In this document: in pieces, positions 11,446-55,470 of the stretch
Layout: every line of letters starts with the position of its first letter
How positions within the stretch are numbered: position 1 is the stretch's first letter
Assembly (NCBI RefSeq): GCF_964213995.1
Contig: NW_027590117.1
Span: 4,030,001 to 4,094,000, forward strand
Direction: 5' to 3'
From: Mustelus asterias
Taxonomy: Eukaryota
DNA length: 64,000 nt
Position numbers and translations under genes: made by a program
The notes under the pieces: model-generated
Told to the model about the DNA's origin: nothing
The model's database searches: none
Seen by the model: only the letters and a program-made list of their open reading frames with translations

Positions 11446-12149
11446 ATCCCGCAAGAAAATGATTCCTGTCCCGCAGCCCGGCTCGTTCTCAATAGAGATC
11501 ATTTCAAATTCAGACTAAAGCAAAACACAGCAGATGCTGAATTTCATTTGAATTTCACATTTGTTCAATCGCCACTTTCTCTCATAATAAAGATGTCTGG
11601 TAGATTCAGTGTGAGACAGTAACACTGGCGGCTAAAAAGCGCTTTCCAACTTCAATTTTAACACAGGAGATTTCTCCAAACAGCTGCAATAAGGTATTTG
11701 TAAACAGCTGGAAGCGGATGTGGGTGAGGATGATACTGAGGGAGATTCTTGCTGTGTTTAGGTCGGAATATTACTGACTGGGAATTATAACGGGATGTGG
11801 AGATGCCGGCGTTGGACTGGGGTAAGCACAGTAAGAAGTCTCACAACACCAGGTTAAAGTCCAACAGGTTTATTTGGCAGCAAATACCATAAGCTTTCGG
11901 AGCAATGCTCCTTCGTCAGATGGAGTGGTCTCTGTTCTCAAACAGGGCACAGACACAGAAATCAAATTACAGAATACTGATTAGAATGCAAATCTCTACA
12001 GCCTGCCAGGTCTTAAATGCACAGACAATGTGGGTGGAGGGAGCATTCAACACAGGTTAAAGAGATGTGTATTGTCTCCAGACAGTACAGCTTGTGAAAT
12101 TGTGCAAGTCCAGGAGTCAAGCTGTGGGGGTTACTGATAATGTGACATA

Positions 12150-14740
12150 AATCCAACATCCCGGTTTAGACCGTCCTAATGTGTGCGGAACTTGGCTATC
12201 AGTTTCTGCTCAGTGACTCTGCGCTGTCGTGTGTTGTGAAGGCCGCCTTGGAGAACGCTTACCTGAAGATCCAAGGCTGAATGCCCGTGACTGCTGAAGT
12301 GCTCCCCCACAGGAAGAGAACAGTCTTGCCTGGTGATTGTCGAGCGGTGTTCATTCATCCGCTGTCGTAGCGTCTGCATGGTTTCCCCAATGTACCATGC
12401 CTCGGGACATCCTTTCTTGCAGCGTATCAGGTAGACAACGTTGGCCGAGTTGCAAGAGTATGTACCGTGTACCTGGTGGATGGTGTTCTCACGTGAGATG
12501 ATGGCATCCGTGTTGATGATCCGGCACGTCTTGCAGAGGTTGCTGTGGCAGGGTTGTGTGGTGTCGTGGTCACTTGTTCTCCTGAAGGCTGGGTAGTTTG
12601 CTGCGGACAATGGTCTGTTTGAGGTTGCGTGGTTGTTTGAAGGCAAGAAGTGGGGGTGTGGGGATGGCCTTGGCGAGATGTTCGTCTTCATCAATGACAT
12701 GTTGAAGGCTCCGGAGGAGATGCCGTAGCTTTTCCGCTTCGGGGAAGTACTGGACGACGAAGGGTACTCTGTCCACCGTGTCCCGTGTTTGTCTTCTGAG
12801 GAGGTCGGTGCGGTTTTTCACTGTGGCACGTCGAAACTGTTGATCGATGAGTCGAGCGCCATATCCTGTTCTTATGAGGGCATCTTTCAGCGTCTGGAGG
12901 TGTCTGTTGCGATCCTCCTCATCCGAGCAGATCCTGTGTATTCGGAGGGCTTGTCCGTAGGGGATGGCTTCTTTTACGTGTTTAGGGTGGAAGCTGGAGA
13001 AGTGGAGCATCATGAGGTTATCCGTGGGCTTGCGGTACAGTGAGGTGCTGAGGTGACCATCCTTAATGGAGATGCGTGTGTCCAAGAATGCAACCGATTC
13101 CGGAGAGTAGTCCATGGTGAGTCTGATGGTGGGATGGAACTTGTTGATGTCATCATATAGTTTTTTTCAGTGATTGCTCACCATGACTCCAAAGGAAGAA
13201 AATGTCATCGATGTATCTAGTGTATAGCATCGGTTGAAGGTCCTGTGCGGTGAAGAAGTCTTGTTCGAACCTGTGCATGAAGATGTTGGCATATTGAGGT
13301 GCGAATTTTGTCCCTATGGCTGTTCCTTGTGTCTGGATGAAGAACTGGTTGTTGAAGGTGAAGATATTGTGATCCAGGATGAAGCGGATGAGTTGTAAAA
13401 TTGCATCTGGAAACTGGCAGTTGACGGCATTGAGTACTGAGGCCGTTGCAGCAATGCCATCATCGTGGGGGATGCTGGTGTAGAGTGCCGAGACATCCAT
13501 TGTGACGAGGAGTGCTCCTGGTTCAACTGCTCCATGTGTGTTGAGTTTCTGTAGGAAGTCCGTAGTGTCGCGACAAAAGCTGGGGGTTCTTTGTACAATG
13601 GGTTTCAAGATGCCCTCGACATAGCCGGAGAGGTTCTCGCACAGGGTTCCGTTTCCTGAAACGATGGGACGGCCGGGTGTGTTTGCCTTGTGTATTTTTG
13701 GGAGGCAGTAGAGATCTCCAACGCGTGGAGTACGTGGGATGAGAGCACGGAGGGTGCTCTGAAGGTCCGGATCAAAGGTTTTGATCAGAGTGTTGAGTTG
13801 ACGGGTGTGTTCTTTGGTCGGATCTGTGGGTAACTGTCTGTAGTGTTCCTCATTGTTCAGTTGTCGGTACACTTCTTTGCAGTAATCCCTTCTGTTCAGT
13901 ATGACGATGGCCCCTCCTTTGTCTGCTGGTTTGATGACAATGTTGCGGTTGGTCTTGAGAGCGTGGATGGCGTTGCGTTGTGCTTGGGTGATGTTCGGTG
14001 CTGTCTTGTGAGTGCGGCTGATGAATTTGGTGTTGACGCACCTCCTGATGGCTTGGGCATACATGTCAAGTCGAGGGCAGCGGCCTTCCGGAGGAGTCCA
14101 ATTCGACTCTTTCCTCTTCGGTTGCACTGCGGGTCTCTCTGTCTGCTGTTCCGGTTCATTAGCTGTCTCATTGTGTTCGCTGTTGGCCTCTTGGGGTTTG
14201 TGGAAGAACTCCCGCAGCCTCATTCGCCTGATGAATTCCTCTGTGTCCGCTGCGAGACTGATGGGGTCTATTTTGGTAGTGGGGCAAAAGTTGAGCCCTC
14301 GGCTGAGAACTTCGATTTCATCTGGCTGAAGTGTGTAGTCCGATAGGTTGACAATGGACTTTCCTGCAGTGGTACTGTTTTCTACTGTGATACCGGGGGA
14401 GGCTTGGTTGCTGCTGGTGGTGATGCCGAGTTTCTCAAGTTTCCTGTTCTTGGTGTGCATGTAGATGGTGTCGTTCCTTTGTCTCGTCTGCTTGGCAGAG
14501 TTTCGCAGCTGGTCTGCGTCCTGAGCGCAGGTTGAGACTATGGATTCGATCTTGGTTTCCAGGCTGCGGCGTTTGCTGTAGAGTTGGTGTATGAGGTGTT
14601 TGAGGAGGGTGAGAGAGGTGTGACGGCACAGTCTCTCAGCGTAGTCCGTGTTAAAGGTTGACCTGAGTGGGTTCGTGATCCGTAGTCCTTTCGGTATCTT
14701 GTCTGCTTTCTTGCATGTTTGTAGAAACTTGATGTCTGTA
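12150..14740 (-). pseudogene. Penelope RT/GIY-YIG ORF broken by frameshifts (~13160, ~12575) and a stop (~12177)
   Basis: Three consecutive ORF segments 13153-14740, 12570-13115 and the distal part of 12176-12700 in different frames. Confidence 0.85.
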
Positions 14741-14752
14741 ACAGAGACCACT

Positions 14753-14789
14753 CCATCTGACGAAGGAGCATTGCTCCGAAAGCTTATGG
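14753..14789 (+). ncRNA. Minimal type I hammerhead ribozyme in Penelope pLTR (mirror copy on - strand at ~11888-11924)
   Basis: ccatCTGACGAaggagcattgctccGAAAgcttatgg: core intact, helix II ggagc/gctcc, helix I ccat/atgg, palindromic helix III. Confidence 0.8.
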
Positions 14790-15304
14790 TATTTGCTACC
14801 AAATAAACCTGTTGGACTTTAACCTGGTGTTGTGAGACTTCTTATTATAACGGGGCCAGGTTTAAAAACACAAAAGCAAAGAGTCACGACCCGAAACGTT
14901 AACTCTGTCTCTCTCTCTCTCTTCACAAAAGCTGCCGGAGCTGCTGATTATTTGCAGCATTTTCTGTTTTGATTCCATATTTCAAAGCTCCGGGTTTGTG
15001 GAAACTCTTGTGTGTGAAGGGCGGCTCTGGAAGGGTTTGTGTGGGGAGCTGTGTTTCGCTTCCATTGTTCATAAACGGGTTGAAATTGGCGGTTGCAGAA
15101 ACTGGAGGTGGAGCTGAAAGATCAGGGGCCGTTCTGTGTGTGTGTGTCAGTCCGGCTCTCTCCTCCCTCCCGCTCTGTGTTTAATCTTCACTCTGTCTCC
15201 TCCCCTCTCTGCTCTCACTCCGCCTTTCTGAGTCAGGTCGGGGCGGGCTGTATAAAAGGAGCCTGAAAAAGTTCCTGTCTCATATTGCGCAGTGATCTGA
15301 GTGA

Positions 15305-20008: not shown

Positions 20009-23000
20009 TGATGCGCGTCAATTGAACACGAGGCACGAAGCTTCGGTAACAGAAGGCTTTTATTGTCTAACAATGGAACTAATAGAACGTAAACACACTA
20101 TCCCAGACTGACGAGGTCCCGCCCGAGCAGGGGGTCTTATACCTCTCCCAGGAGGCGGAGCCCGACTGGGATGTGCCACAACAGTAACAACCACAGGTGT
20201 ATTAATCCCACAGTGGGAACCAACGATGGTTCACCACATTCACCCCTCCTTTGAGAACAAAGGCCGGCGGGGTACGAAAACAGACTAAAATGTCAACAGA
20301 TTATAAGTTCAGACGGTCTGGAGGACCGCACCATCGTTGTGACCTCCTCAATACCGGCGGTGACACCGGAGTAGGTGCTTGCGGTGGCGTTCTCCCCAAA
20401 ACAGCGTCCAGCTGTTCCCCCACGGACTCACAGGCCGGTTGACCCTGATGAAGCGGTAGTGCAGGGGATCCCGGTACACTCTGCGATGGCGCCGATCTCC
20501 GGGGCTCAGGCAAGCTGTGCATTGGAGTAAAACTGTTAAGCACTGGTCCCGGTGCTGTCCGCGCCACGTCCGGGGGAGAAATAAGGGATTCGTCACTGGG
20601 GGTATGGGAGCGACAGGAGTTGCTACGTCCCCTGCGGGCGCCAGGTCTCGGATCGAGACTGTGTCCTCTCGCCCGTCAGGATATGCCACATAGGCATACT
20701 GAGGGTTGGCGTGGAGGAGGTGGACCTGTTCGACCAAGGGGTTGGACTTGCGGGCCCTTACCTGTCGCCGCAGAAGGACGGGTCCTGGGTACGTCAACCA
20801 GGCTGGTAAAGATATCCCCGAGGACGACTTCTGAGGGAATGAGAACATCCTCTCGTGGGGAGTAGCATTGGTTGCCGTACACAGGAGGGAGCGAATGGAG
20901 TGAAGCGCATTAGGGAGGACCTCCTGCCAATGGGAGACTGGAAGGCCTTTGGACTTCAGCGCCAATAGGACAGCCTTCCAGACTGTAGCATTCTCTCTTT
21001 CCACCTGTCCATTACCCCTAGGGTTGTAACTCGTGGTCCTACTAGAGGCAATCCCGCATGAGAGCAGGAATTGCCTCAAGTCATTACTCATGAACGACGA
21101 GCCCCTGTCGCTATGGATATAGCTGGGGTACCCGAACAGGGTAAAAAGATCACGGAATGCCTTGATCACCGTGGCAGTCGACGTGTCCGCGCAGGGGACA
21201 ACAAATGGGAACCGGGAGTACTCATCTATTATGTTCAGAAAGTACACGTTCCGATCTGTTGAGGGAAGGGGGCCCTTAAAATCCACACTCAGCCTCTCGA
21301 AGGGGCGAGTGGCCTTGACCAAATGTGCCCGGTCAGGTCGGTAACAGTGCGGTTTGCATTCCGCGCAAATCCGACAGCTCCTTGTCACCGACCTGACGTC
21401 CTCCACCGAGTAAGGCAGGTTGCGGGCTTTGATAAAGTGGTAGAGCCGAGTGACCCCAGGATGGCACAGGTCATTATGGAGGGCGTTCAAGCGATCCTCC
21501 TGCATAGTAGCGCATGTTCCGCGCGAGAGGGCGTCCGAGGGCTCATTGAGTTTCCCTGGACGATACATAATATCGTAGTTATAGGTGGAGAGTTCAATTC
21601 TCCACCGCAAGATCTTATCATTCTTGATCTTGCCCCTCTGCGTGTTGTTGAACATGAACGCCACGGACCGCTGGTCCGTGATCAGAGTGAACCGCTTCCC
21701 CGCCAGGTAATGGCGCCAGTGTCTGACGGCCTCCACAATGGCCTGGGCCTCCTTTTCCACCGCTGAATGCCGAATTTCGGGGCCTTGGAGGGTGCGGGAA
21801 AAAAACGCGATGGGCCTGCCCGCCTGGTTCAGTGTGGCGGCCAGGGCGAAATCAGATGCATCGCTTTCCACCTGAAAAGGGATGGATTCGTCTACCGCGT
21901 GCATCGTGGCTTTCGCGATGTCGTGTTTCAATTCCTTGAAGGCCAATTGGGCCTCTGGCGTGAGTGGAAAAGTCGTGGACTTAATAAGCGGACTGGCTTT
22001 GTCCGCGTAGTTAGAGACCCACTGCGCATAATAGGAGAAGAAGCCTAGGCATCTTCTCAGTGCTTTTGCGCTAGCGGGCAAGGGAAGTTCAGCAGGGGGG
22101 CGCATACGGTCGGGATCAGGGCCAATGACCCCGTTTTCCACCACGTATCCCAGGATGGCTAACCGGCACGTATGGAATACACACTTCTCCCTATTCGAGG
22201 TCAAATTCAGGCGAGATGCAGTGCGTAAAAAGTTCTGGAGATTTGTGTCATGGTCCTGCTGATCACGGCCGCAGATGGTGACATTATCCAGGTACCGGAA
22301 GGTAGCCCGCAGCCTGTTCTGGTCCACCATTCGGTCCATAGCACGCTGGACGACCGAGACCCCATTGGTGACACCAAATGGAACCCTAAGAAACTGATAC
22401 AGACGACCATCCGCCTCAAAGGCCGTGTAGTGTCGGTCCTCTGGGCGAATGGGGAGTTGGTGGTAGGCGGACCAAAGGTCTATGGTGGAGAACACCCGGT
22501 ACTGCGCAATCTGATTGACCATATCAGATATGCGCGGGAGGGGATACGCATCCAGCTGCGTATATCGATTAATGGTCTGACTGTAATCAATGACCATCCG
22601 GGGTTTGTTCCCGCTCTTGACCACCACAACCTGTGCTCTCCACGGACTAACACTGGGCTGTATGATCCCTTCTTTGAGGAGTCGCTGAACCTCAGATCTG
22701 ATGAAGATCCGATCTTCAGTGCTGTAACGCCTACTTTTAGTAGCAATGGGCTTGCAGCCTGGTACCAGATTCTTGAATAAAGAGAGTGTGGTGATCTTTA
22801 ATGTAGAAAGATTGCATGCGGGGCGCTTTGGACAATTTGGAGACTGCAGCTGTTCCCCTACTGTCAGCGAAGGGAGTGGCCCACCGTACTGTAGGATCAC
22901 ACTCTTCATGTGGACCATAAAGTTTAGTCCGAGGAGAATTGGTGCGCAAAGATGCGGCAACACAAGGAGCCTGAATCGCTCGTAAATTGTGCCTTGCACT

Positions 23001-24571
23001 TTCAAGGTTACCACACAACGTCCTAGCACAGGGACAGACCGGGACCTTGATGCCATAGAGATTGTCTGTTTGGCAGGTTGAATCTGGAGTCCACACCTCT
23101 TTACAATGTCAGGGTGAATAAAGCTCTCAGTGCTCCCGCTGTAAAACAGACAATAAATTGCACGACCATTTACCTGTATATCCATCATTGAACAGTCAAG
23201 CCTGTGGTGCTTAGCCTGGTTCAGGGTGATCGACGCCACCGTTGGTCCGTGAACGTCACTGCAGGCAGCTGAGGTCGATGCTGAGGACCCCTGCTGGTCG
23301 CTCATGGTCATCGTCGACCAAAATGGCCGCCCCCATGAATCGCACATGGTTGAGGGCGCCAAACGTAGCGACTCCTGGTGGTCATCCTCCTCCGACTCCG
23401 TCGACCACAATGGCGTCGTCCTGGACTCGCACGTGGACGAACCCCGTGAGTACTTCGACGTCGATGGTGATGATCCCCGTTCCGAAGGGTCACAGGCTGC
23501 ACTGCCGTTCTTGGGCTTCGATCTGCACACCTTCGCATAATGCCCCTTTTTACCGCATAGGTTACAGACCACCGCTTTAGCGGGACACTTTTGTCGTGGA
23601 TGCTTGGCTCCTCCGCAGAAGTACCACCGCGGGCCGCATGGGGCAGCAGCCGTCGTCGGGTCTACATGGGAGCACGCCATAACACTGCACTTCGAGCCCG
23701 TGAGGCGAGGAGGGATTTGCGACTGCTCCTGCCACGTTGTCTCCACGTGGTCCTCCGGATACAGGACCAAGCTCTTCGAAGCCGCCTCAAGCATTTCAGC
23801 CAATTCCATAGCTTGGGTCAGGTTGAGATTTCCCTTTTCTAGCAGCTTGAGACGGATGTATGAAGACCCTACCCCTGCCACAAACGCATCTCGGGTGAGG
23901 TCATACATGTACTGCTCAGCCGACACAGCTTTGCAGTCACAGCCCCTGGCAAGCTGCAAGAGCTCATTGGCGTAATCCTCCATGGTTTCGCCCGACTGCT
24001 GACGTCGTGTAGCGAGGAGGTAACGAGCGTGGATCTCGTTGGGAGGTTTCGTGTAGCGCTTTTTTAAAAGCTCGAGGGCCCTCGGGTAAGTGGTGGCTGC
24101 ACGGATCGCGAGGTAGACTGTGTCGCTTACCCTCGAATGGAGGACCCGGAGTCTGTCATCATCTGTGGTGACCGCTGCGGAGGCTGCCAGGTAGTCTTCA
24201 AAACACTTCAGCCAGTGGTCGAAGGTGTTAGAAGCGCCCACCGCACGTGGATCTAGCGTCAGACGTTCTGGCTTTAGGATTTGCTCCATACTCTCCTTTC
24301 TTTTTCCCTTCCGTCGAGAGCTTAATGTCAGACAATAAAATTGATGCGCGCCAATTGAACACGAGGCACGAAGCTTCGGTAACAGAAGGCTTTTATTGTC
24401 TAACAATGGAACTAATAGAACGTAAACACACTTTCCCAGACTGACGAGGTCCCGCCCGAGCAGGGGGTCTTATACCTCTCCCAGGAGGCGGAGCCCGACT
24501 GGGATGTGCCACAACAGTAACAACAACAGGTGTATTAATCCCACAGTGGGAACCAACGATGGTTCACCACA
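20009..24571 (-). mobile_element. Full-length Ty3/Gypsy LTR retrotransposon (Mag-like) with 5-bp TSD GTGAA
   Basis: 230-bp TG..CA LTRs at 20009-20238 and 24342-24571 (3 mismatches seen); PPT aaaggaggggtgaa next to the 3' LTR; gtgaa at 20004-20008 and 24572-24576. Confidence 0.96.
20348..24289 (-). CDS. Gag-Pol polyprotein (Gag with Zn knuckles, protease, RT, RNase H, integrase); probable C-terminal frameshift near 20580
   Basis: CNLCGKKGHYAKVC, FYSGS, RMVIDY, YLDNV, SDASD, HPGV..C..C, VDFKGP, SDRG, GQVER; likely start MEQILKP at 24289. Confidence 0.92.
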   Translation of the reverse strand: MEQILKPERLTLDPRAVGASNTFDHWLKCFEDYLAASAAVTTDDDRLRVLHSRVSDTVYLAIRAATTYPRALELLKKRYTKPPNEIHARYLLATRRQQSGETMEDYANELLQLARGCDCKAVSAEQYMYDLTRDAFVAGVGSSYIRLKLLEKGNLNLTQAMELAEMLEAASKSLVLYPEDHVETTWQEQSQIPPRLTGSKCSVMACSHVDPTTAAAPCGPRWYFCGGAKHPRQKCPAKAVVCNLCGKKGHYAKVCRSKPKNGSAACDPSERGSSPSTSKYSRGSSTCESRTTPLWSTESEEDDHQESLRLAPSTMCDSWGRPFWSTMTMSDQQGSSASTSAACSDVHGPTVASITLNQAKHHRLDCSMMDIQVNGRAIYCLFYSGSTESFIHPDIVKRCGLQIQPAKQTISMASRSRSVPVLGRCVVTLKVQGTIYERFRLLVLPHLCAPILLGLNFMVHMKSVILQYGGPLPSLTVGEQLQSPNCPKRPACNLSTLKITTLSLFKNLVPGCKPIATKSRRYSTEDRIFIRSEVQRLLKEGIIQPSVSPWRAQVVVVKSGNKPRMVIDYSQTINRYTQLDAYPLPRISDMVNQIAQYRVFSTIDLWSAYHQLPIRPEDRHYTAFEADGRLYQFLRVPFGVTNGVSVVQRAMDRMVDQNRLRATFRYLDNVTICGRDQQDHDTNLQNFLRTASRLNLTSNREKCVFHTCRLAILGYVVENGVIGPDPDRMRPPAELPLPASAKALRRCLGFFSYYAQWVSNYADKASPLIKSTTFPLTPEAQLAFKELKHDIAKATMHAVDESIPFQVESDASDFALAATLNQAGRPIAFFSRTLQGPEIRHSAVEKEAQAIVEAVRHWRHYLAGKRFTLITDQRSVAFMFNNTQRGKIKNDKILRWRIELSTYNYDIMYRPGKLNEPSDALSRGTCATMQEDRLNALHNDLCHPGVTRLYHFIKARNLPYSVEDVRSVTRSCRICAECKPHCYRPDRAHLVKATRPFERLSVDFKGPLPSTDRNVYFLNIIDEYSRFPFVVPCADTSTATVIKAFRDLFTLFGYPSYIHSDRGSSFMSNDLRQFLLSCGIASSRTTSYNPRGNGQVERENATVWKAVLLALKSKGLPVSHWQEVLPNALHSIRSLLCTATNATPHERMFSFPQKSSSGISLPAWLTYPGPVLLRRQVRARKSNPLVEQVHLLHANPQYAYVAYPDGREDTVSIRDLAPAGDVATPVAPIPPVTNPLFLPRTWRGQHRDQCLTVLLQCTACLSPGDRRHRRVYRDPLHYRFIRVNRPVSPWGNSWTLFWGERHRKHLLRCHRRY

Positions 24572-32659: not shown

Positions 32660-33352
32660 CAGTGTGCAATGAATACTCTCTCAATCTATCAGCGTGTGTG
32701 CGTGAAGAATCAACTCTCTCAATCTATTACTGTATGGGTGTGGAATTAACTCTCAATCTATTAGTGTGAGAGTGTGGAATTAACTCTTTCTCAACCTATT
32801 ACTGTGTCTCAGTGTGTAATTAACTCTATCTTAATCTAGTGCTGTGTTTGGGTGGAATTAACCCTCTAACAATCTATTACTGTCTGTGTGTGTGTGGAAT
32901 TAAAACTCTCTCAATCTAACAGTGTGTGTGGGTGTGGAATTAACTTTCTCTCAATCAGTTGCTGTGTGTCGGTGTGGAATTAACTCTATCTTAATCTATT
33001 ACTGTGAGAGAGTGTGCAAGTAACACTGACAATCTATTAGTGTGTGTGAGTGTGTGGTTAACTCTCTCTCTCAGTCTATTGCTGTGAGAGAGTGTGGAAT
33101 TAACTCTCCCTCTCAATCTATTACTGTGTGAGAGTGTGTTGAATTAACTAGCTGACAATATATTACTGTGTGTGTGTGTGTATGTGGAACTAACTCTCTC
33201 TCAATCTATTACTGTGTGAGAGTGCGTGGAATTAACGAGCTGACAATATATTACTGTGTGTGTGTGTGTATGTGTGTGTGTGGAACTAACTCTCAATCTA
33301 TTACTGAGTGAGTGTGTGTGTGGTGTGTGTGGAACTAACTCTCTCTCAATCT

Positions 33353-33392
<40 letters not shown>

Positions 33393-34890
33393 AGTTGACT
33401 CTCTCAATCCATTAGTGTGTGAGAGCGGCAATTATAATTGTCTCAATCTACTACTGTGTGTCAGTGTGGCAGAAACTCTCTCTCAATCTATTACTATGTG
33501 AGAGTGTGGCAGTAACTCTCTGACAATCTATTACTATGTGAGAGTGTAGAATTATCACTCTCTCAATCTGTTACTGTGTGTAGAATTAATTCTCTCTCAA
33601 TCTATTAAGGTGTGTGAGTGTGTAATTAACCCTCTGTCAGTCTATTACTGTGTATGAGTGTCGAATTAACTCTCTCAATCGATTAGTGTGTGAGTGTAGA
33701 ATTAACTCTCTCACTCCATTACTGTGTGTGAGTGTGGAAATGACTCTCTTCTATTACTTTATCGATTACTGTGCAGAATTAACTCTCTCAATCTATTATT
33801 GTATGTGAGTGTGGAATTAACTCTATCCTATTACTGTTTGTGCATGTGTGCGTGTGTGTGGAATTAACTCTCTCTCAATCTATTCCTCTGTGTGATTGTG
33901 GAAGTAGCTCTCTCAATCTATTGCTGTGTGTGTGTGGAATTAACTCTCTCTCAATCTATTGCTCTGTCAGTGTGGAATTAACTCTCTCACAATCTATTAC
34001 TGAGTGTGAGTGTGGAATTAACTATCTCTCAATCTATTACTGAGTGCAAGTGTGCAAATAATACTCTCTCAATCTATTACTGTGTGAGAGGGTGGAATTA
34101 ACTCACATCTATTACTAGGTGCGAGTGTGGAATTAACTCCCTCTCAATCTATTCCTCAGAGTGTGTGGAATTAACTCTCTCTCAATCGATTACTGAGTGT
34201 GAGTGTGGAATTAATTCTCTCTCAATTTATTACTGTGTGAGAGGGTGGAATTAACTCCCATCTATTACTATGCATGAGTGTGGAATTAACTCCCTCTCAA
34301 TCTATTACTATGTGATAGTGTGGAATTAACCGTCTCAATCTGTTAGTGTGTGTGTGTGGAATTAACACCCTCTGAATTGAATTGTGAGAGAGTGTGGAAT
34401 TATCTCTCTCAATCTATTACTGTGTGCGAGTGTGCAATGAATAATCTCTCAATCTATCACTGTGTGAGTGTGTAATTAACTCTCTCTCAAACTATTACTG
34501 TGTTTCAGTGTGGAATTAACTCTCAATCTATTACTGTGTGTCAGTGTGGAATTGACTCTCTCTCAATCTATTGCACTGTGTGCGAGCGTGGAATTAACTG
34601 TCTCTCACTGTATTGTTGTGTGTGAGGATGGAAGAACTCTCTCTCAATCTATTACTGTGTGAGAGTGTGGATGTAACTCTCTCTCAATATGTTACAGTGT
34701 GAGAGTGTGAAATTGACACTCTCTCAACCAATTACTGTGTATGTGTAATTAACTCCCTCTCAAACTATTACTGAGTGTGAATGTGGAATTAACTCTCTCT
34801 CAATCTGTTACTGTGTGATTGTAGAAATAACTCCCTAGCTATCTATCAATAATGTATGCAATTAACTGTCAGTCTCTGTTACTGTATGGA
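32660..34890. repeat. Degenerate satellite, ~38-42 bp unit
   Basis: gtgtggaattaactctctctcaatctattactgtgtgaga repeated dozens of times with variable (GT)n/(CT)n. Confidence 0.93.
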
Positions 34891-43423: not shown

Positions 43424-43748
43424 TTTTTTTTATACTTTTCCAATTCAATCAAATCTAATTCAGAGTCTCAACAAGTTGAGACATTTCAGATCCAGGCTGA
43501 CAAGACAGGACGGGAGACCAAAACCACCCTGTCCTGGGCCTGATCGACATGAGTCAAGCTGATTGGAGAAGGGGGAGGATCCTCCTCCAAGACTTGAGCT
43601 CATTTGCATCTTAGCCAAAAGGCCGAGATGCCGCTTTTAAAAATTGCTTCATATGAAACATATGAAGCCTCAGCGTAACCTAATGACCTCAACCAAGTGC
43701 AGGCAATCCATACTACACTTGATCTGAGCCAAAAGGCCGAGAAGCGAT
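43424..43748 (-). mobile_element. U2 snRNA-headed, structured, A-tailed SINE-like element (copy 1)
   Basis: 43748-43710 equals U2 nt 1-39 (one mismatch); internal U2 nt 7-27 at 43628-43608; several hairpins; A8 tail. Confidence 0.8.
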
Positions 43749-52269: not shown

Positions 52270-53500
52270 TTTAAAGTTCTTTGAGGAGGCAAAAGGAAGT
52301 TCGATAAAGGAGAACCAGTGGACGTGATTTATTTAGATTTCCAGAAGGCCTTCTGACACGGTGCGGAGTCGGAGACTGTTAAATAAGTTAAGAGCCCATG
52401 ATGTTAAGGGTAAGATCCAGGCATGGATAGAGGATTGGCTGACTGGCAGAAGGTGGGGATAAAGAGGTCTTTTTCAGGATGGCAGCCGATGTTGAGTGGT
52501 GTGCCTCAGGGATCAGTGCTGGGACCACAACTTTTCACCATATACATTAACAATTTGGAAGCAGGAAGTGAAAGCTCTGTTGCTAAGTTTGCAGATGATA
52601 CAAAGACATGGAGAGGGACAGGTAGTACTGAGGAAGCAGGGAGGCTGCAGAAGGACTTGGACAGGCTAGGAGAGTTGGCAAAGAAGTGGCAGATGGAATA
52701 CAATGTGGAAAAGTGTGAGGTTATGCACTTTGGAGGGAGGAATGGAGGCATAGACTATTTTCTAAATGGGGAAATGCTGAGGAAATCAGAAGCGCAAAGG
52801 GACTTGGGAGTCATTGTTCAAGATTCTCTTAAGGTTAACCGGCAGGGTCAGTTGGCAGTTCGGAAGGCAAATGCAATGTTAGCATTCATGTCGAGAGGGA
52901 TACAATATAAGAGCAGTGATGTACTTCTGAGGCTGTACAAGGCTCCAGTCACACCCCATTTGCAGTATTGTGAGCAGCTTTGGGCCCCGTATCTAAGGAA
53001 GGATGTGCTGGCCTTGGAAAGGGCCCAGAGGAGGTTCACAAGAATGATCTCTGGAATGAAAAGCTTGTCATATGAGAAACGGTTGAGGACTCTGAGTCTG
53101 TACTCATTGGAGTTCACAAGGATGAGGGGGGACCTTGTTGAAACTTATAGGATACTGTGAGGCCTGGATAGAGTGGACATGGAGAGTTTGTTTCCAAAAT
53201 CAGGAAAAACTAGAACCAGAGGGCACAATCTCAGGCTAAAGGGACGATCCTTTAAAACAGAGATGTGGAGTAATTTGTTCAGCCAGGGACTGGTGAATCT
53301 GTGGAACTCTTTGTTGCAGAAGGCTGTGGAGGCCAAGTCATTGAGTGTTTTTTAAGACAGAGATAGGTAGACTTGATTAATAAGGGGACCAGGGATTATG
53401 GGGAAAAGGCAGAATGAGGAAGAGAAAAATATCAGTCATGATTGGCGGATAAGACTCGATGGGCCGAGTGGCCTAATTCTGCTCCGATAACTTATGGTCT
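52270..53500 (+). mobile_element. CR1 RT 3' half inserted in the 36-bp satellite
   Basis: [28 protein letters not shown]; satellite-type units on both sides. Confidence 0.85.
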
Positions 53501-53502
53501 CA

Positions 53503-54060
53503 CACACTATCAGAGTGAGTAAATCCCGCAATCACACACTGTATCAGAGAGTGAGTAAATCCCACACTCTCACACTGTATCAGAGAGTGAGTAAATCCCA
53601 CACTCTCACACTGTATCAGAGAGTGAGTAAATCCCACACTCTCACACTGTATCAGAGAGTGAGTAAATCCCACACTCTCACACTGTATCAGAGAGTGAGT
53701 AAATCCCACACTCTCACACTGTATCAGAGAGTGAGTAAATCCCACACTCTCACACTGTATCAGAGAGTGAGTAAATCCCACACTCTCACACTGTATCAGA
53801 GAGTGAGTAAATCCCACACTCTCACACTGTATTAGAGTGAGTAAATCCCCCACACACACACTGTATCAGAGAGTGAGTAAATCCCGCACTCACACACGGT
53901 ATCAGAGAGTGAGTAAATCCCACACTGTATCAGAGAGTGAGTAAATCCCACACGGTATCAGAGAGTGAGTAAATCCCACACTCTCACACTGTATCAGAGA
54001 GTGAGTAAATCCCACACTCTCGCACTGTGTCAGAGAGTAAGTAAATCCCACACTCACGCA
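53503..54060. repeat. 36-bp minisatellite
   Basis: gtatcagagagtgagtaaatcccacactctcacact, near-perfect central copies. Confidence 0.95.
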
Positions 54061-54246
54061 CATTACCAGAGATTCACAGTTCCTGAAGGAATCCCACACT
54101 CCCGCACAGTTCTTCTGTGGAGAAGGGTCCCTCACACCGACAGCCAGGCGACATTTCCCGTTGGATCTTTTTTTTTAAGTGTTTAAATCACCATCTTTAA
54201 TTTACTTAGGACAAAACAGCTTTAACTATACCCTCCATGTTCAGTG

Positions 54247-54555
54247 TCAATTTGCTGATTCAGTGACTTTATTTGGTCTGCGCCCTTGAAACAATTTTCT
54301 GTTTCTCTGAACTTGAAGCTTTGCCCCTTCAAGGAGGCGTGGTTCCTTCTGCAGTGCATTCTGAAGCCCTTCTTCTGTATTGAAGCCAACCCAACAGAAT
54401 CCTCTACGAAATCCAGTCTCTTTTTCGAATGGAAGAAGACATTTCTTTACTAATCCAAACTGTCCAAAATATTCTTTGATTTCTTTGCCGGCCAGGGTCC
54501 AGGGCACCCGCGACACGAAGATCTCGAAGCTCTTTCTGGAAGGAGCCGCCGCCAT
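54247..54555 (-). CDS. SLIRP: Processed (intronless) retrocopy of SLIRP, mitochondrial RRM protein; ORF intact (102 aa)
   Basis: FVSRVPWT..KEYFGQFG.V.KC.LPF.KETGF.RG..WV.F..EEGLQNALQ matches the SLIRP RRM; ATTAAA, A9 tail and 15-bp TSD. Confidence 0.85.
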   Translation of the reverse strand: MAAAPSRKSFEIFVSRVPWTLAGKEIKEYFGQFGLVKKCLLPFEKETGFRRGFCWVGFNTEEGLQNALQKEPRLLEGAKLQVQRNRKLFQGRRPNKVTESAN

Positions 54556-54808
54556 CTTGTAATGGCCGCCGGTCCCGGTGGATCTTTACACACTGACAAA
54601 CTGGCGCTGGAGATTCTTTGTAAAATGTATTTCCTGATTGTGGTAAGGGGGCTTGTGATTGGCGGAAACTTCTCAATCTGATTGGTCTGTTTTCATATCC
54701 ACTCAAATGAACCCCTGATAAGTGACTGTAATAACTTTCAAAATGTCGAATCACAATCATTGCTTTCCCAATTCCTCATTAGCATAGTTCTGTGGGACTG
54801 TCTATTTA

Positions 54809-54954
54809 CGGTAAGAAGTTTAATAACACCAGGTTAAAGTCCAACAGGTTTATTTGGTAGCAAAAGCCACACAAGCTTTCGAAGCTCTAAGCCCCTTCTT
54901 CAGGTGAGTGGGAATTCTGTTCACAAACAGAGTTTAGAAAGACAAAACAAAGTT
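54809..54954 (-). mobile_element. Penelope pLTR fragment with hammerhead, inserted at the H2B TATA box
   Basis: Reverse complement cacCTGAAGAaggggcttagagcttcGAAAgcttgtg; tattta on both sides (54803-54808, 54955-54960). Confidence 0.8.
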
Positions 54955-55006
54955 TATTTAATCAGCGCTCGGAAGGGGTTTGCTTTATTTCTGTGTGAAA
55001 TTGAAC

Positions 55007-55393
55007 ATGGCTGATGAGAAGAAACCAACATCGAAACCAGCTGCCAAGAAGGGGGCGAAGAAAGTGATTAAGAAACCGGGAGCAAAGGGCGGCAAGAAGC
55101 GGCGAAAGTCGAGGAAGGAGAGTTACTCCATCTACATCTACAAAGTGATGAAGCAGGTTCACCCCGACACCGGCATCTCTTCCAAGGCCATGAGCATCAT
55201 GAACTCGTTCGTGAACGATATTTTCGAGCGCATCGCGGGTGAGGCTTCCCGCCTGGCCCATTACAACAAGCGCAGCACCATCAGCTCCCGGGAGATCCAG
55301 ACCGCCGTGCGCCTGCTGCTGCCCGGGGAACTGGCCAAGCACGCCGTGTCGGAAGGTACAAAGGCGGTGACCAAGTACACCAGCTCCAAGTAA
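55007..55393 (+). CDS. H2B: Histone H2B, copy 2 (128 aa)
   Basis: [22 protein letters not shown]. Confidence 0.98.
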
Positions 55394-55429
55394 AACTCCC
55401 CATGGACTGAAAAACACTCCAAACACAAC

Positions 55430-55470
55430 GGCTCTTTTAAGAGCCACCCACAATCTCTGTGAAAAAGCTG
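55430..55470 (+). terminator. Histone stem-loop plus HDE (H2B copy 2)
   Basis: GGCTCTTTTAAGAGCC at 55430-55445, then gaaaaagctg. Confidence 0.95.

Follow-up and report, generated by a model that had tools for sequence, protein, structure and literature searches.

The window, a 64,000-nt stretch of Mustelus asterias DNA, is part of a shark histone cluster in which genes for H1, H4 and H3, two for H2A and two for H2B lie among retroelements. Facing away from one of the H2B genes is a stop-free SLIRP open reading frame of 102 aa (54555-54247, minus strand), whose surroundings comprise the following features.

54156..54170, plus strand: target-site duplication at the 3′ end of the retrocopy, with a later G>T at 54161; the target is single-copy in empty units
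54171..54176, minus strand: poly(A) remnant, a non-templated A6 (A9 when three A's of the duplication are counted)
54177..54246, minus strand: 3′ UTR from parent exon 4, with ATTAAA at 54201-54196
54247..54555, minus strand: SLIRP open reading frame, three introns precisely lost, junctions at 54486/5, 54427/6 and 54319/8
54424, 54407 and 54338, minus strand: derived residues D44E, H50R and H73R, respectively
54556..54572, minus strand: 5′ UTR of 17 nt from parent exon 1, with a G>A at 54563 that is common to all five copies
54573..54587, plus strand: target-site duplication at the 5′ end of the retrocopy; the empty site reads ...GATCTTT/ACAC
54658-62 and 54681-85, minus strand: two CCAAT boxes, 107 and 130 bp upstream of the SLIRP ATG, also in empty units
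54747..54785, plus strand: H2B-facing elements, namely CGAAT (54747, from CCAAT in a sub-lineage), CCAAT (54768) and octamer-like ATTAGCAT (54778)
54809..54960, plus strand: Penelope-like terminal fragment of 152 bp at the TATA-like box, with TATTTA duplicated
55007..55393, plus strand: histone H2B open reading frame, 128 aa, from a family of at least 40 units with no adjacent H2A
55425..55470, plus strand: H2B 3′ stem-loop (Rfam)

The product of the minus-strand frame carries a single RRM_1 domain. Its best match among solved structures is human SLIRP (PDB 8any_A6, E 7.5e-28; runner-up 2.5e-18), and in a protein database search 128 of 133 candidates passed an E value of 1e-15, with a best identity of 91%; most of the 120 relatives listed bear the SLIRP name. 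The identity proposed in the initial annotation of this stretch is thus upheld by both structure and database relatives. Searching the genome itself with SLIRP gave 15 matches, four of which are the exons of a parent gene on contig C18 with GT-AG introns. The window copy aligns to the spliced form of this four-exon gene, as anticipated from the multi-exon structure of vertebrate SLIRP, and is identical to the spliced mRNA at 392 of 396 nucleotides (four differ). It is therefore like vertebrate SLIRP in its 99% nucleotide identity to the parent, its RRM_1 domain and its nearest structure, but differs in having no introns and in carrying Arg at both invariant histidines (human H59 and H82). Three older SLIRP retrocopies, on C6, C17 and C18, retain 83-88% identity and are broken by indels or insertions; hence SLIRP has been retroposed repeatedly, and its copies normally decay. 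The parent gene (L016, G000 C18:80272500-80282400) is itself head-to-head with ALKBH1, with 196 bp between start codons, and its NCBI model has a 66-aa N-terminal extension that is absent from the other shark records listed and is probably a model artefact.

The window copy is derived from a SLIRP mRNA and bears the marks of target-primed reverse transcription. Precise intron loss, non-templated poly(A) and a target-site duplication confirmed by the empty site are all present, in agreement with the mRNA-derived origin that had been claimed. The uninterrupted 102-aa frame, short 5′ UTR (17 nt), ATTAAA signal and 15-bp duplication with one mismatch in the initial annotation were likewise recovered at the positions listed above. 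Its A9 tail does consist of nine A's, but three of these belong to the duplication, so the added tail is A6. The ATTAAA precedes the A6 by 19 nt, and beyond the last shared base the parent continues into other sequence with no A run. A 14/15 match between the two duplication copies at fixed places has a chance probability of ~4e-8, and the mismatch at 54161 is a later mutation, because the 3′ copy of the duplication is perfect in three of the five retrocopies described below. The 5′ junction shows microhomology with the target at four of five positions. All five copies have a start codon in strong context, and the stretch from the CCAAT boxes to the SLIRP start of the window copy is free of other ATGs. 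The description of the retrogene as intact holds for its open frame, but not for its residues, since GFRRG and EPRLL are both derived and replace GFHRG and EPHLL in the parent.

The empty site, GATCTTT/ACAC, is similar to the T-rich consensus at which L1-type endonucleases nick. A young L1/Tx1-clade family, 94-99% alike, is present in the genome; its members have AATAAA-poly(A) ends and an intact ORF2 of ~1135 aa with endonuclease, RT and zf-RVT; retrotransposition machinery is therefore available. A family search for L1 ORF1 gave no match, and its control was equally silent. The SLIRP retrocopy was likely made by target-primed reverse transcription of the L1/Tx1 type. An element endonuclease would have nicked the target at CTTT/AC, the T end at the nick would have primed on the poly(A) of a SLIRP mRNA, and a second nick 15 bp away would have created the duplication, leaving the copy 300 bp upstream of an H2B gene that has no H2A partner. 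An open chromatin state at a germ-line histone promoter may have favored this site. The copy resembles L1-type processed pseudogenes in its lost introns, poly(A) remnant, 15-bp duplication, T-rich nick site and 5′ microhomology. It differs from them in lying in a shark histone array, in having been duplicated after insertion and in that only a probable class of maker element can be proposed for it. Young, species-restricted retrocopies predominate outside mammals, birds and turtles (~70-98%; PMC13320880). No publication on a shark SLIRP retrocopy or a histone-promoter retrocopy was found among literature records consisting mostly of titles and the beginnings of abstracts; the retrocopy table of PMC13320880 may include the window copy.

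The promoter side of the window H2B unit was matched to 40 places in the genome (40 of 48 candidates scored), and 30 units were fetched. Five of these carry the SLIRP insert and 25 are empty, the latter holding the target once, with only its last 10 bp retained in two of the 25. Three copies, including that of the window, are on C85, one is on C223 and one on C141. All five have in common both junctions, a single 5′ UTR substitution and flanks that are 96-99.8% alike over 7-20 kb. In a tree of the 30 units, the SLIRP copies occupy one branch (91/86) in which one empty unit is nested, and a single SLIRP clade gives p-AU 0.13 when imposed as a constraint, so the test does not reject a single origin. 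A hotspot hit by several independent insertions was considered and ruled out by the common junctions, UTR change and flanks. These shared features indicate that SLIRP was apparently inserted once and that segmental duplication of the H2B unit then raised the number of assembled copies to five. Insertion would have been followed by duplication, then by the changes of the C85 lineage together with the 152-bp insert, and finally by further duplication. The C85 lineage carries H50R, H73R, the CCAAT>CGAAT change and the 152-bp insert. The C223 and C141 copies carry E11V, keep both interface histidines and have an undisturbed promoter without the insert.

It is possible, although rather doubtful, that the copy number is partly an assembly effect in which some copies are haplotypes and the true number is two to four per genome, a situation that would still fit one insertion multiplied with the unit. 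For example, the copies on C223 and C141, both short contigs, are 99.4% alike over 9.6 kb, and the window copy and that at 3.21 Mb on C85 are 99.8% alike over 12.8 kb. However, a single contig holds three of the copies, which are separated by 0.9-2.6 Mb and distinguished by indels of their own. A 1.2% difference and the promoter insert set the two sub-lineages apart, so at least some of the duplications are real. A comparable history is that of the elephant TP53 retrogenes (TP53RTG), in which a single retrotransposition was followed by repeated segmental duplication, as homologous flanks reveal (PMC5061548). The SLIRP case differs in being very young (~1% divergence), in having at most five copies, in having the turnover of histone units as its driver and in that a transcript or function would be hypothetical.

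Divergent H2A/H2B promoter pairs are found in amniotes and frogs. They also occur in yeast (PMC5706932), and the H2B side of the window promoter is like them in having CCAAT boxes, an octamer-like element and a TATA-like box. The initial annotation had placed SLIRP in the position of the divergent H2A partner, a claim that our comparison contradicts. No H2A lies within 1.5 kb at any of 30 loci of the H2B family, and none of the best 30 H2A loci (L066-L095) has a divergent H2B; instead, 23 of these 30 have H2B upstream on the same strand, in tandem and ~1.2-1.4 kb apart. Thirteen longer flanks of H2B units contain H2A only once, 7 kb off and behind another H2B. As supporting evidence, with 42 of 150 H2A matches used, the nearest divergent H2A is at least 7.1 kb from 35 of the 40 promoter units, and the other five have none on that side. 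Since the empty units are without a nearby H2A and the H2B-H2A pairs of this cluster are tandem, the retrocopy filled no H2A slot. A zinc-finger gene was also considered as the natural divergent partner and was rejected, as the window contains no C2H2 motif and the 13 flanks (10-20 kb) contain one isolated motif.

The head-to-head arrangement with H2B is nevertheless as the initial annotation described it: the distance between the two ATGs, given as ~450 bp, measures 452 bp, and the minus-strand CCAAT boxes are found at 54658 and 54681. At insertion the start codons were 300 bp apart, and the other 152 bp come from the later insert. This fragment occurs in three of the 30 units, all of them SLIRP-bearing, is 78-83% like the ends of an element with RT and GIY-YIG at 11828-14844, and places an extra 152 bp between octamer-like ATTAGCAT and the TATA-like box. 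Two public runs show the skip joint for it. In the window, H4 and the two unpaired H2A genes likewise have reverse CCAAT boxes in front of them, and such boxes by themselves are therefore no mark of a bidirectional promoter. In mammals, the octamer drives S-phase transcription of H2B, and the histone 3′ stem-loop governs mRNA processing and decay (PMC5706932). An Rfam search placed Histone3 stem-loops downstream of six histone genes in the window; at the retrocopy it found none.

Head-to-head retrocopies that borrow the bidirectional promoter of a neighbor are known in mammals, such as human HTR7P1 beside HEBP1 (PMC4772013). This precedent, together with a strong SLIRP start reached from the CCAAT boxes without an intervening ATG, speaks for possible leaky expression. 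The SLIRP copy resembles these in being divergent from, and within 2 kb of, a protein-coding gene. However, the mammalian cases were defined by expression and co-expression and the SLIRP copy by its sequence, and the neighbor of the latter is a replication-dependent histone gene with a disrupted promoter. Of 21 public runs, none was listed as RNA for this stretch, which is neutral as to expression. We compared window positions 54075-55000 with the contigs of four public runs, bearing in mind that contigs drop rare variants. Runs X1 and X17 contain spliced SLIRP contigs that look like parent mRNA, because they have the parent letters at 54338, 54407 and 54424 and a 5′ end that continues into other sequence. 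Contigs of these two runs give no cover at 54602-54787, and the organisms may be without the insertion. One X17 contig (depth 8.9) covers 54075-54170, the empty-site side that faces away from H2B. At most, the contig hints weakly at divergent transcription, and a variant between units also explains where it ends. Run X15 shows the empty joint and a promoter without the 152-bp insert, and X19, another sample of the same organism, yielded a contig with the E11V letter that reaches 24 letters past the 5′ junction (bridging threshold 31). No window-type letters were seen in the contigs of the four runs, in which rare variants are dropped. If the H2B promoter does give rise to divergent transcription, we would expect the product to be incidental.

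Compared with the parent protein, the window copy has D44E, H50R and H73R and zero synonymous changes; over the five copies, the distinct coding changes are these three and E11V, all non-synonymous, plus one synonymous change. The neutral expectation is that 73-78% of coding changes are non-synonymous, and the probability of four in five is 0.6-0.7 at an omega of 1, 0.06-0.10 at 0.2 and 0.01-0.02 at 0.1. Strong constraint on the copies appears unlikely from these values, and weak constraint is compatible with the five changes, the probability over omega 0.2-0.5 being 0.06-0.41 with only five coding changes. Divergence of the window copy from the others is 1.27% in the retrocopy vs 1.2% in the flank, and 0.51% vs 0.40% (Fisher p 0.67-1.0; BLAST trimmed one terminal mismatch in three comparisons). 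Alignment with the parent shows a young spliced copy, with a rate equal to that of its flank and a neutral-like four non-synonymous changes to one synonymous. All five frames are open, which has a 76% chance after five substitutions.

The positions of the changes are less ordinary than their number. Among relatives, His occupies both position 50 and position 73 in 120 of 120, Asp occupies position 44 in 117 of 120, and Glu occupies position 11 in 117 of 119. Each copy is altered at one or more columns that at least 97% of relatives conserve. All four amino-acid changes fall in columns conserved in at least 95%, which represent 33% of non-synonymous opportunities (P ~0.012, post hoc). By structure-match alignment, H50 and H73 correspond to human H59 and H82, which belong to different LRPPRC-binding sites. 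Two of the four changes thus fall on the five LRPPRC-binding residues, one per site (P ~0.015, post hoc, four events), and in this post hoc sense the clustering on conserved and interface residues exceeds the expectation from neutral drift. The human SLIRP mutants H59A-R60A and E80A-N81A-H82A each lost LRPPRC binding (PMC5001613). Of the corresponding residues, the two histidines are altered in the window copy, whereas the C223 and C141 copies keep them all. A protein with H50R and H73R is predicted to bind LRPPRC poorly, although the published mutants are double and triple alanine changes and not His to Arg.

Our preferred reading, to which we assign a probability of roughly 0.8, is that of a young processed SLIRP copy that was inserted once, was multiplied with the histone unit and is drifting without selection for SLIRP function. 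Given that no partner was displaced, that the rate is flank-like and that two invariant residues are altered, the copy is likely an ordinary decaying passenger, whose frame would remain open because the copy is young. Evidence against neutrality comes from the five open frames, the strong start context and the NCBI entry XP_078060357.1, in which the C223 copy is modeled, on a basis that is not visible, as coding for a SLIRP-like protein; the protein of the window copy has no exact match in the same NCBI protein collection. It is improbable that the copy is instead expressed and under selection, either as a free, more basic RRM protein uncoupled from LRPPRC or because extra SLIRP from a strong promoter was harmful and interface-breaking changes were favored. 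The concentration of all four changes in highly conserved columns and of two on LRPPRC-binding residues (PMC5001613) would agree with this, as would the three copies of the H50R/H73R sub-lineage. However, the tests were chosen post hoc on only four changes, a lone His to Arg differs from the published double and triple alanine mutants, and the overall rate is that of the flank.

We regard as about equally improbable the model of the initial annotation, a functional SLIRP retrogene that uses the divergent side of the H2B promoter so that additional SLIRP is made in S phase; the proposed link between a mitochondrial mRNA-stability factor and the cell cycle is accordingly speculative. The head-to-head placement, the two CCAAT boxes 107 and 130 bp upstream, the open frame and the poly(A) signal are what such a gene would have, and the C223 and C141 copies keep both interface histidines and are without the promoter insert. 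Against this, neither the unit family nor the cluster has an H2A slot, divergence is neutral-like and every copy is changed at a column that is at least 97% conserved. In addition, the copy is without the stem-loop that histone mRNAs need for S-phase control (PMC5706932), and in the window copy 152 bp of inserted sequence separate the octamer from the TATA-like box, and a CCAAT box carries a mutation. Likewise improbable is a new gene arising in the shark histone array, in which SLIRP would be transcribed from the back side of the H2B promoter and spread by unit duplication, with one sub-lineage selected to Arg at both LRPPRC-contacting histidines and thereby yielding an LRPPRC-independent RNA-binding protein in dividing or germ cells.

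If the copy is the drifting passenger that we favor, it would provide a datable example of how a retrocopy originates in a shark and hitchhikes on the birth-and-death duplication of histone genes. SLIRP would then serve as a marker that orders events in the cluster: its insertion, duplication, the Penelope insert and further duplication. Should the copies be expressed, filled and empty alleles of one promoter, with and without the insert, would let nature itself show whether a vertebrate histone promoter can drive transcription of a polyadenylated, non-histone gene on its reverse side. The protein with H50R and H73R would likewise be a ready-made probe of the SLIRP-LRPPRC interface.

Several other observations concern the H2B units and the retroelements. 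Two H2B units (L027 and L029) have a different left flank with a breakpoint inside the 15-bp SLIRP target, which suggests a break-prone site. Of three others (L021, L037 and L041), two have H2B frames split by a frameshift near codon 50 and one has GTG instead of the start codon; these are decaying members or assembly errors. A ~36-bp tandem repeat (window 53498-54072) lies directly downstream of the retrocopy and is found in most units, and a diverged inverted relative of it is at window 32680-34818. One of six inspected young L1/Tx1-clade elements, a Tx1-clade element with intact ORF2 (L133, G000 C21:28064500-28074499), ends directly at presumed U2 snRNA sequence, a Keno-like target. Keno, of the Tx1 clade, targets U2 snRNA (PMC4494074). 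A series of 15 zf-RVT matches ~8.03 kb apart (G000 C24:44820143-44932907) represents one Tx1/L1-clade element repeated in tandem, perhaps within an array of repeated RNA genes. Approximately 190 bp upstream of the other H2B ATG of the window is a U2-headed, poly(A)-tailed SINE-like element (43424-43748, minus strand; Rfam U2 match) with two U2 5′ fragments, up to 96% identical to repeats that flank young Tx1/L1-clade elements. It recalls the crocodilian SINEU families (PMC4494074); our literature search found no paper on shark elements of this type. Both H2B promoters of the window therefore carry poly(A)-tailed insertions. Finally, an uninterrupted gag-pol-like frame of 1313 aa (20348-24289, minus strand) with protease, RT, RNase H and integrase represents an LTR retrotransposon.
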